Shown here one piece after another: positions 47,891-49,190 of a stretch of DNA of 64,000 nt. This DNA is from Narcine bancroftii (Eukaryota). Made by a program: the position numbers and the translations under genes. Under the pieces are notes generated by a model, which saw only the letters and a list, made by a program, of their open reading frames with translations, ran no database searches and was not told the DNA's origin. The number at the start of each line of letters is the position of its first letter. Within the stretch, counting starts at the first letter, position 1. The DNA lies in assembly GCF_036971445.1 (NCBI RefSeq), contig NC_091470.1, positions 145,390,001 to 145,454,000 of the forward strand. Direction: 5' to 3'.

Positions 47891-49190
47891 AATACAATTT
47901 CTTAAAAAGGGAAATTTACTTTAATATATTTGGAAATTCCTGGATATTCTCCATGCGTTTTGTTGAAATGTCAAGGGGATGAGGCTGGAGGAGTTACTGA
48001 GTAAAGCTGCAATTAACAGGAACAATAAAAAGGAAATCATTTCAAGTACAATGATAATTACTTTATAGCTCTGGAGATTAATTCAACATTCACACAATGG
48101 CACTTGCAATAACTCCCTCCCAAAAAAAAATCAGTTCCTAAAGGAGATCAGGAGCTGAGGTAAATGGCAAAAAAAATTCCCAGTGACAGATGTGAGAAAC
48201 TGATCTTAATCCCTCAAATTTTTCATGGAATGTCTCGGATGACAAGTGCTTTGCATATGCAACACTTGCTTCCAGTCACTGTTTCCCCCAATACGCCTTT
48301 TTGCTTGACCCTGATCCATAGAGGAATTGAACAACAAGCAATACACAAGAGCCTGCAGATGCTGGAATCTTGGCAAACAAGGAGTTGCAGCAGACCAGGG
48401 AGCAACCGTGGGTACACATGGTTGGACCCTTTATTTATAAAAAGGTCGACCATTTCTACCGATGGAGGCTGCCTGATCCTGTCAGGTAATTGTTCCAAAC
48501 GCAATACAGGACATTAAACACATGGTGGAGTCAACGTTTGTTCTTCCTTCACTTTTCTTCCCCCCCCCCCCCACCCCCCCACCCCCCACCCCACATCCAA
48601 TACCCGACACAGTAAAGTCTGCAGATAGCCTGCAGCCCCCTCTATTTCTCCACAAGATTACGAGATACTGTTTTAGAATCAGAATTTATCATCATGAATA
48701 AGTCACAAAATTTGTTGTTTTGTGGCAGCATCAACGTGTAAACATTTATATAAACCAGCTTAAAAAAAAAACATAAAGAGTGCACAGAAGTCGAAAAACA
48801 ACAGGATATTCTGACCTTGAGGATTAAGATGGGAGCTCTACACCCTAGATAACTGCAGAGCAGGAAATTACTTGTGATAAATCTTATGCAAGAAATCTAG
48901 CAAAGAAAGCCAACTTTTGTTCTGTATGATAAGGTTGAGCTATATAAACTGTAGAGACTGGATAGTATAGGTCAGTCTTGGGGAATAGCTCACTGTGCAG
49001 GTGATCTACGAACTAACGACTGAACCAGAGCTCTGTTAAGCTTTATTCTTGTGGGGGGGGGAGTCACGTGATGGAGTAGTGGCCGGACGGTGAACTCCAG
49101 CCCTCTCCAGAAAAGTCGGGAAAAACAAGAGAAAACACAAAGGCACAGAAATAAAAGTTAAAGAAAAGTGAGTATAAAGGTGGAAAGAAG

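Follow-up and report, generated by a model that had tools for sequence, protein, structure and literature searches.

The 5' transductions of L1 retrotransposons are known in primates (PMC4859970, Fig. 2f; PMC9341517; PMC6035798), where, going by the excerpts available of the respective sources, they are very rare (PMC4862182) and make up less than 1% of new human L1 insertions (PMC9341517); the rarity that a first-pass annotation of the present DNA had ascribed to such events agrees with both. In the same excerpts, primate cases have non-L1 DNA that lies ahead of an intact L1 5' end and behind the left target site duplication (TSD), together with an untemplated G, a poly(A) tail and an endonuclease site; the locus described here is arranged likewise, its first G being a candidate for such an untemplated letter. 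The differences are that the extra DNA is here 260 bp of an LTR-like repeat with an internal TATA box and initiator, that most of ORF2 is missing, that the donor is not traced and that the ORF1 of the inserted copy is far from mammalian L1 ORF1. A second point of comparison is provided by SVA elements, whose 5' transductions are, in the portion of the source at hand, about threefold enriched for ERV sequence (PMC12593883): an LTR-type repeat is likewise located in the 5' part of a non-autonomous, trans-mobilised element, whereas the carrier here derives from an L1, codes for ORF1 and keeps a 5' end of its own. Finally, 5' RNA/L1 chimeras with promoter co-option (10.1101/2025.02.02.635956) also present a sense 5' piece of similar size, a near-full-length L1 and one TSD, but the pieces described in the available text of that work are first exons of unique sequence that in many cases end at a splice donor, whereas here a repeat fragment is found with no GT at the break.

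In a literature search of partial coverage, no report of an LTR-derived L1 5' transduction was found, and supplementary table 4 of 10.1101/2025.02.02.635956 may include repeat-derived cases. The available part of PMC13141329 deals with 3' transductions only, and a possible precedent in hamster, an L1 whose 5' end would stem from an LTR, was dropped because PMC8437802, in the part at hand, gave no support. The event analysed here is most likely a 5' transduction, a known but infrequent result of L1 retrotransposition that is here encountered beyond the mammalian L1s for which it had been reported. Such an event would show one way for an L1 lacking ORF2 to gain a ready-made LTR core promoter.

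Anatomy of the insertion, its carrier and its target

The window, i.e., the whole stretch of 64,000 nucleotides analysed, was submitted to a repeat search, in which the longest exact flanking match around the insertion was 18 bp, with the left TSD at 48775-48792 and the right TSD at 51497-51514 (plus strand). The length of the TSD is given as 15-18 bp since its first three A possibly come from the tail; the 15-mer just 3' of the tail occurs twice in the window against about 0.0001 times by chance, and the nick site on the bottom strand reads CTTT/AT, an endonuclease-type site. Enclosed by this one TSD are, in order, 260 non-L1 bases (48793-49052), an intact L1 5' end, an intact ORF1, an internally deleted ORF2 and a poly(A) tail, an anatomy showing that the 260-bp segment and the L1 entered in one target-primed event. 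The left TSD end placed at 48792 by the first-pass annotation is borne out by the exact repeat, the roughly 260 bp of non-L1 DNA ahead of the L1 5' terminus are indeed there, and the single co-insertion it proposed is supported by the TSD, the endonuclease-type site and the poly(A) tail. With both parts in one TSD ending in poly(A), an intact L1 5' end directly after the segment and a segment that is not the regular 5' end of the family, the locus has three of the traits expected of an L1 5' transduction.

The L1 itself opens with a run of nine G (49053-49061), the start of a 5' end and 5' UTR reaching up to ORF1 (49053-49190, plus strand) with 70% identity over 238 bp to a second, older copy in the window. 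The 18-letter motif after the G run has only two matches in the window (49061 on the plus strand and 35582-35599 on the minus strand; chance mean 0.07), which upholds the earlier placement of the L1 terminus at about 49053 by its likeness to the end of the second copy. The intact ORF1 (49191-50420, plus strand, 409 aa) has the coiled coil-RRM-CTD organisation homologous to L1 ORF1p that is proper to the L1 clade (human L1 ORF1p structure 2ykp, E 5.5e-13; Pfam Transposase_22, E 0.027, below the cut-off). A search for this ORF1 in metagenomes confirmed none of 595 candidate stretches, and it was also absent from the protein collection. At the end of ORF1, a 74-bp tandem duplication (50411-50559, plus strand, 94% matches) spans the stop codon, which is retained. 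Instead of the APE endonuclease and RT of an L1-clade ORF2, the inserted copy retains the beginning of ORF2 as a stub (51020-51097, plus strand; 78.5% alike over 93 bp to the corresponding part of the second copy), after which a large internal deletion sets in, so that the inserted copy is a non-autonomous L1 derivative; AATAAA and a poly(A) tail with 23 pure A close this copy at 51462-51499 (plus strand). This copy is young and gutted, and its former description as an ORF1-only L1 holds for the intact ORF1 but overlooks the remaining ORF2 stub. HAL1-type elements, which we take to be internally deleted non-autonomous L1s, likewise have an intact ORF1 and no working ORF2, the stub being retained here.

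The older related copy (32535-35605, minus strand) has a decayed ORF1, an ORF2 endonuclease (structure 1vyb, E 3e-6) and no 260-bp piece upstream, and has lost its 3' part. A 169-bp part of its ORF2 endonuclease is duplicated (94%) at 33175-33343 and 33521-33689, one of the two copies lying upstream of the ORF2 start.

The interrupted host is a high-copy retroelement on the minus strand, with its 3' UTR and 3' end at 48672-48774 and a broken C-terminal piece of its ORF, delimited by reading frames, at 51515-51830. In run X1, contig depth rises at 48671 from 7.6 to more than 100,000, with 388 loose ends before 48675. That the two halves rejoin across the TSD, as previously proposed, would follow from the TSD and from the order of ORF end and 3' UTR, but no empty-site contig was present among the contigs listed. 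Its Rex1-like identity survives as a lead towards a candidate Rex1/Babar-like element, given by Atlas PF09004 clusters at scores of 0.86-0.89, under 0.9, whereas no such Pfam match was returned at E up to 1; the PF09004 domain is one that we take to be linked to Rex1. One X1 contig (depth 7.4) connects host-family sequence at 48753 with the L1 start at 49057, the letters between being not known, and probably represents another host copy struck by an L1 without the LTR piece.

The 260-bp segment as part of an LTR-like repeat

Contigs from public runs X1, X5, X6 and X7 (four of the nine listed, with X2-X4, X8 and X9 left out) were aligned to 48596-49330 at 85% likeness. X5 is a run from a relative; X6 and X7 are RNA by guess, none of the runs being recorded as RNA, and contigs can show neither starts nor strand. 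Contig depth, which is a rough guide only and not copy number, amounts, as summed depth in the ten bins inside the segment, to 17,150-124,581 in X1, against 7.6 on the unique flank, and to 1,319-6,969 in the relative, 9,209-59,851 in X6 and 3,786-21,630 in X7. The closest family pieces among those listed are 98-99% alike, namely with one difference in 108 letters (X5) and two in 90 and two in 84 (X7). Judged from these alignments, the segment is a piece of a repeat of very high copy, both in this organism and in the relative, rather than anonymous unique flank. Its earlier description as carried flanking DNA stands insofar as it is non-L1 and lies inside the TSD, but must be qualified in that the segment itself belongs to a high-copy repeat.

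The match to this repeat spans 48795-49053, the G at 49053 being common to the repeat and the L1 G run, and the family continues past both ends of the segment, with loose ends upstream of 48795/48799 and downstream of 49050/49053; in some family copies, 48892-48932 is tandemly repeated. Within the window, 48793-49052 has no paralogue (best other match 14 bp, E 0.16) and is no more similar to the DNA flanking the second L1 copy than expected of random windows (score 19; mean 18 and maximum 26 in 200 such windows). A 24-base stretch of the segment had no match in metagenome, viral and GTDB contigs. An Rfam search gave three matches, all far below the gathering score.

The segment has a putative U3-R layout. 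A U3-like part, cut on its 5' side (48795-48973), contains a TATA box (48941-48948, with TATAAA at 48943), which is followed by an initiator-like motif (48972-48978) with a predicted +1 at 48974, 31 nt after TATAAA; the R-like part (48974-49053) is cut 6-7 letters before the AATAAA of the family, all four features lying on the plus strand. The spacing of about 30 nt between TATA box and initiator is that expected of an LTR. When the initiator was defined loosely, the pairing turned up in 48 of 5000 shuffles and in 5 of 490 window tiles, and under a strict definition in 2 shuffles and 1 tile. In all four runs, AATAAA occurs in loose ends behind 49050/49053 (1, 1, 3 and 3 contigs, among 24 listed of 556 rows), which places it 86 nt after +1, i.e., within the about 100 nt expected in an LTR. 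A TATA box, a start and then AATAAA constitute the U3-R layout of an LTR. As loose ends show at most 30 letters, the ends, the PBS/PPT and the class (ERV, Gypsy or other) lie beyond view, and the family, whose motifs suggest LTR anatomy, is filed as LTR-like.

At four positions of the segment (48963, 48968, 49005 and 49009), the letter of the window is nearly absent from the family, with residual depths in X1 of 32, 0, 40 and 53; the non-zero values are 4-7 times the unique flank and correspond to 0.04-0.15% of family depth, the remaining position being at 0. Two of the three letters with residual depth are at zero depth in the relative. In the 40 listed of 75 difference rows, the segment has 4 such rare positions in 261 nt and the L1 has none in 277 nt (Fisher p 0.055), which fits an older genomic copy as the source. 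Since the family is so abundant, a plain BLAST yields very many matches, and only the junction and these four positions can tag a donor; the donor-tagging value attributed to the transduced DNA is thereby confined to them, the segment as a whole being far too common.

Junctions and a proposed donor L1 within an LTR copy

With moderate confidence, the segment is best read as a 5' transduction whose donor L1 would have been situated within a copy of the LTR-like repeat, in its R region. A full-length-5' L1 of the family of the inserted copy would have entered, in sense orientation, the R region of one copy of the abundant repeat, with a nick at TT/AA that parted this LTR copy from its AATAAA. 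An RNA starting in U3, some 180 nt upstream of the main LTR start, would then have continued across U3-R and the adjoining L1 as far as the poly(A) signal of the latter. The last step, shown by the anatomy, is the insertion of the RNA by target-primed reverse transcription into an A-rich stretch of another retroelement, which yielded one 15-18-bp TSD around the two parts; ORF2p would have been supplied in trans if the donor already had the ORF2 deletion. This transduction is favoured by the one TSD, the mid-R break without GT, the TT/AA at TSD distance, the unmatched G and the four rare positions; it is weakened by the lack of a donor or bridging piece among those listed, the non-canonical start with an AT-rich run close before it, the two unmatched letters, the post hoc choice of TT/AA, and the rarity of L1 5' transductions in primates beside documented 5' additions that involve no donor L1.

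At the left junction, family alignments begin at 48795 in X1, X5 and X6, leaving unmatched a G and one A (48793-48794, plus strand), the former a candidate cap G and the latter an unexplained extra. In gapless register, both letters differ in the two covering family loose-end rows, i.e., one in X6 before 48795 (6 contigs, agreement 0.67) and one in X5 before 48799 (a single contig). The first G is, in these two rows, not templated, which fits a cap-derived letter; the cap-compatible single G of the first-pass annotation is in place, but two letters are unmatched, with one A to spare. An extra G is typical of full-length L1 junctions in the excerpts available (PMC11702581; PMC9341517). In the loose-end rows, a C directly precedes the family match, which gives a pyrimidine/purine start. 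The segment begins 180 nt upstream of the canonical LTR start (48974), so that the RNA would come from a minor U3 start or be a longer read-through RNA cut short: capping at 48794/48795 is somewhat the likelier of the two, and a longer RNA with reverse transcription stopping there is a little less probable. An AT-rich run is seen in one upstream loose-end row, only 13-24 nt before the segment start. The TATA box and initiator of the LTR, located downstream of this start and inside the segment, cannot be the promoter of the transduced RNA. The proposal that the source element was transcribed from an upstream promoter and moved its flank agrees with the favoured transduction, but the promoter cannot be this one, and an identical anatomy would result from a chimera of two RNAs. 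The target and one family row have five letters in common at the 5' junction (48791-48798; 51513-51517), a run that the two unmatched letters break up in the window; this sharing may reflect chance or the use of microhomology.

At the right junction, the break lies mid-R and not at a natural RNA 3' end, with one G shared with the L1. The TT/AA at 49036-49039, 15-16 nt before the junction, is where the TSD of a donor would begin, and would define a 5' TSD of the donor L1 of 15-16 nt at 49038-49053 (plus strand). It is the sole site with at most two mismatches to TT/AAAA among 25 positions scored; the chance of such a site is 4-6% for TT/AA and 41-57% for a loose YY/RR, the pattern having been chosen after looking. 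No GT splice donor was found at the start of the loose-end rows behind 49053. A spliced or trans-spliced 5' chimera was rejected, there being no GT donor after the extra piece and the L1 beginning at its own G run and not at an internal acceptor. Among the 32 contig pieces listed of 13,238, none bridges the junction on either side; as contigs drop rare variants, this proves nothing, polymorphism included.

Competing origins of the segment

The strongest competitor, unlikely though still of some weight, is a chimera formed from two RNAs in the course of insertion, where ORF2p would have copied an L1 RNA to its 5' end before a switch, ligation or end-joining to an LTR-like RNA or cDNA, with no donor L1 in an LTR copy. 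The same anatomy arises in this way without any donor L1, the parts are in the same orientation with one shared G at the junction, and the LTR-like family is abundant in both RNA-guess runs (summed depth 3,786-59,851). Same-orientation two-RNA insertions (PMC11702581, section 7) and 5' additions to near-full-length L1 without an L1 at the source (10.1101/2025.02.02.635956, section 24) are described in the sections available of these sources. On the other hand, the break is neither at a polyadenylated end nor at a splice donor, and the TT/AA at TSD distance would be a coincidence. The window letters at 48963, 48968 and 49009 also have zero depth in both RNA-guess runs, a weak point as contigs drop rare variants.

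It is distinctly improbable that the locus belongs to an incipient L1 lineage capturing an LTR promoter, in which a donor in the LTR spawned a handful of ORF2-less copies with U3 and TATA/initiator. Starts inside U3 would let the promoter travel along, and such copies would in turn give rise to others that begin at 48974. A few siblings would be in line with the residual depth of three rare letters, which falls short of showing them. If siblings exist, the origin of new L1 5' UTRs becomes directly testable, and such a lineage, if true, would capture the replacement of a 5' UTR in progress, a process whose intermediates are rarely observed.

An assembly chimera is very unlikely. In its favour, each of the three parts is a very high-copy sequence, X1-X4 contain only 0.74-0.75 of 91 words and no junction piece is among the 32 listed of 13,238, but exact 18-bp TSD copies stand 2.7 kb apart at an endonuclease-type site, the unique flank is exact over 109 bp in X1, and contigs drop rare variants while the sample may lack a polymorphic insertion.

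Slightly less probable still is that a sizeable L1 subfamily regularly has its 5' UTR extended by the 260 bp. L1 lineages do recruit new 5' UTRs, according to the available part of PMC3600994, and window letters persist at three of the four rare positions in X1. However, this residue of at most 0.15% of family depth, nil at the fourth position, compares with an L1 5' depth of 273,930-1,011,159, so that copies with the segment can number no more than a handful; listed loose ends at the junction continue into LTR sequence, and the second L1 copy in the window is devoid of the piece. As such, most family members do not have the segment as a longer 5' UTR, a situation that had been named as grounds for abandoning the transduction.

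An independent LTR insertion beside the L1, later trimmed by deletions, is close to refuted and as improbable as the subfamily: the segment does come from a separate young family, given its few differences from the best listed pieces, but neither LTR end nor a short flanking TSD is present and two deletions would be needed, ending exactly at the L1 TSD and at the first L1 base. Cut at both ends and without a TSD of its own, the segment arrived with the L1 and is not the separate element with its own TSD that had been considered beforehand.

Elsewhere in the window, the interspersed short repeats presumably resemble those of cartilaginous fishes, and a 55-bp unit is present in three copies at 61074-61241.
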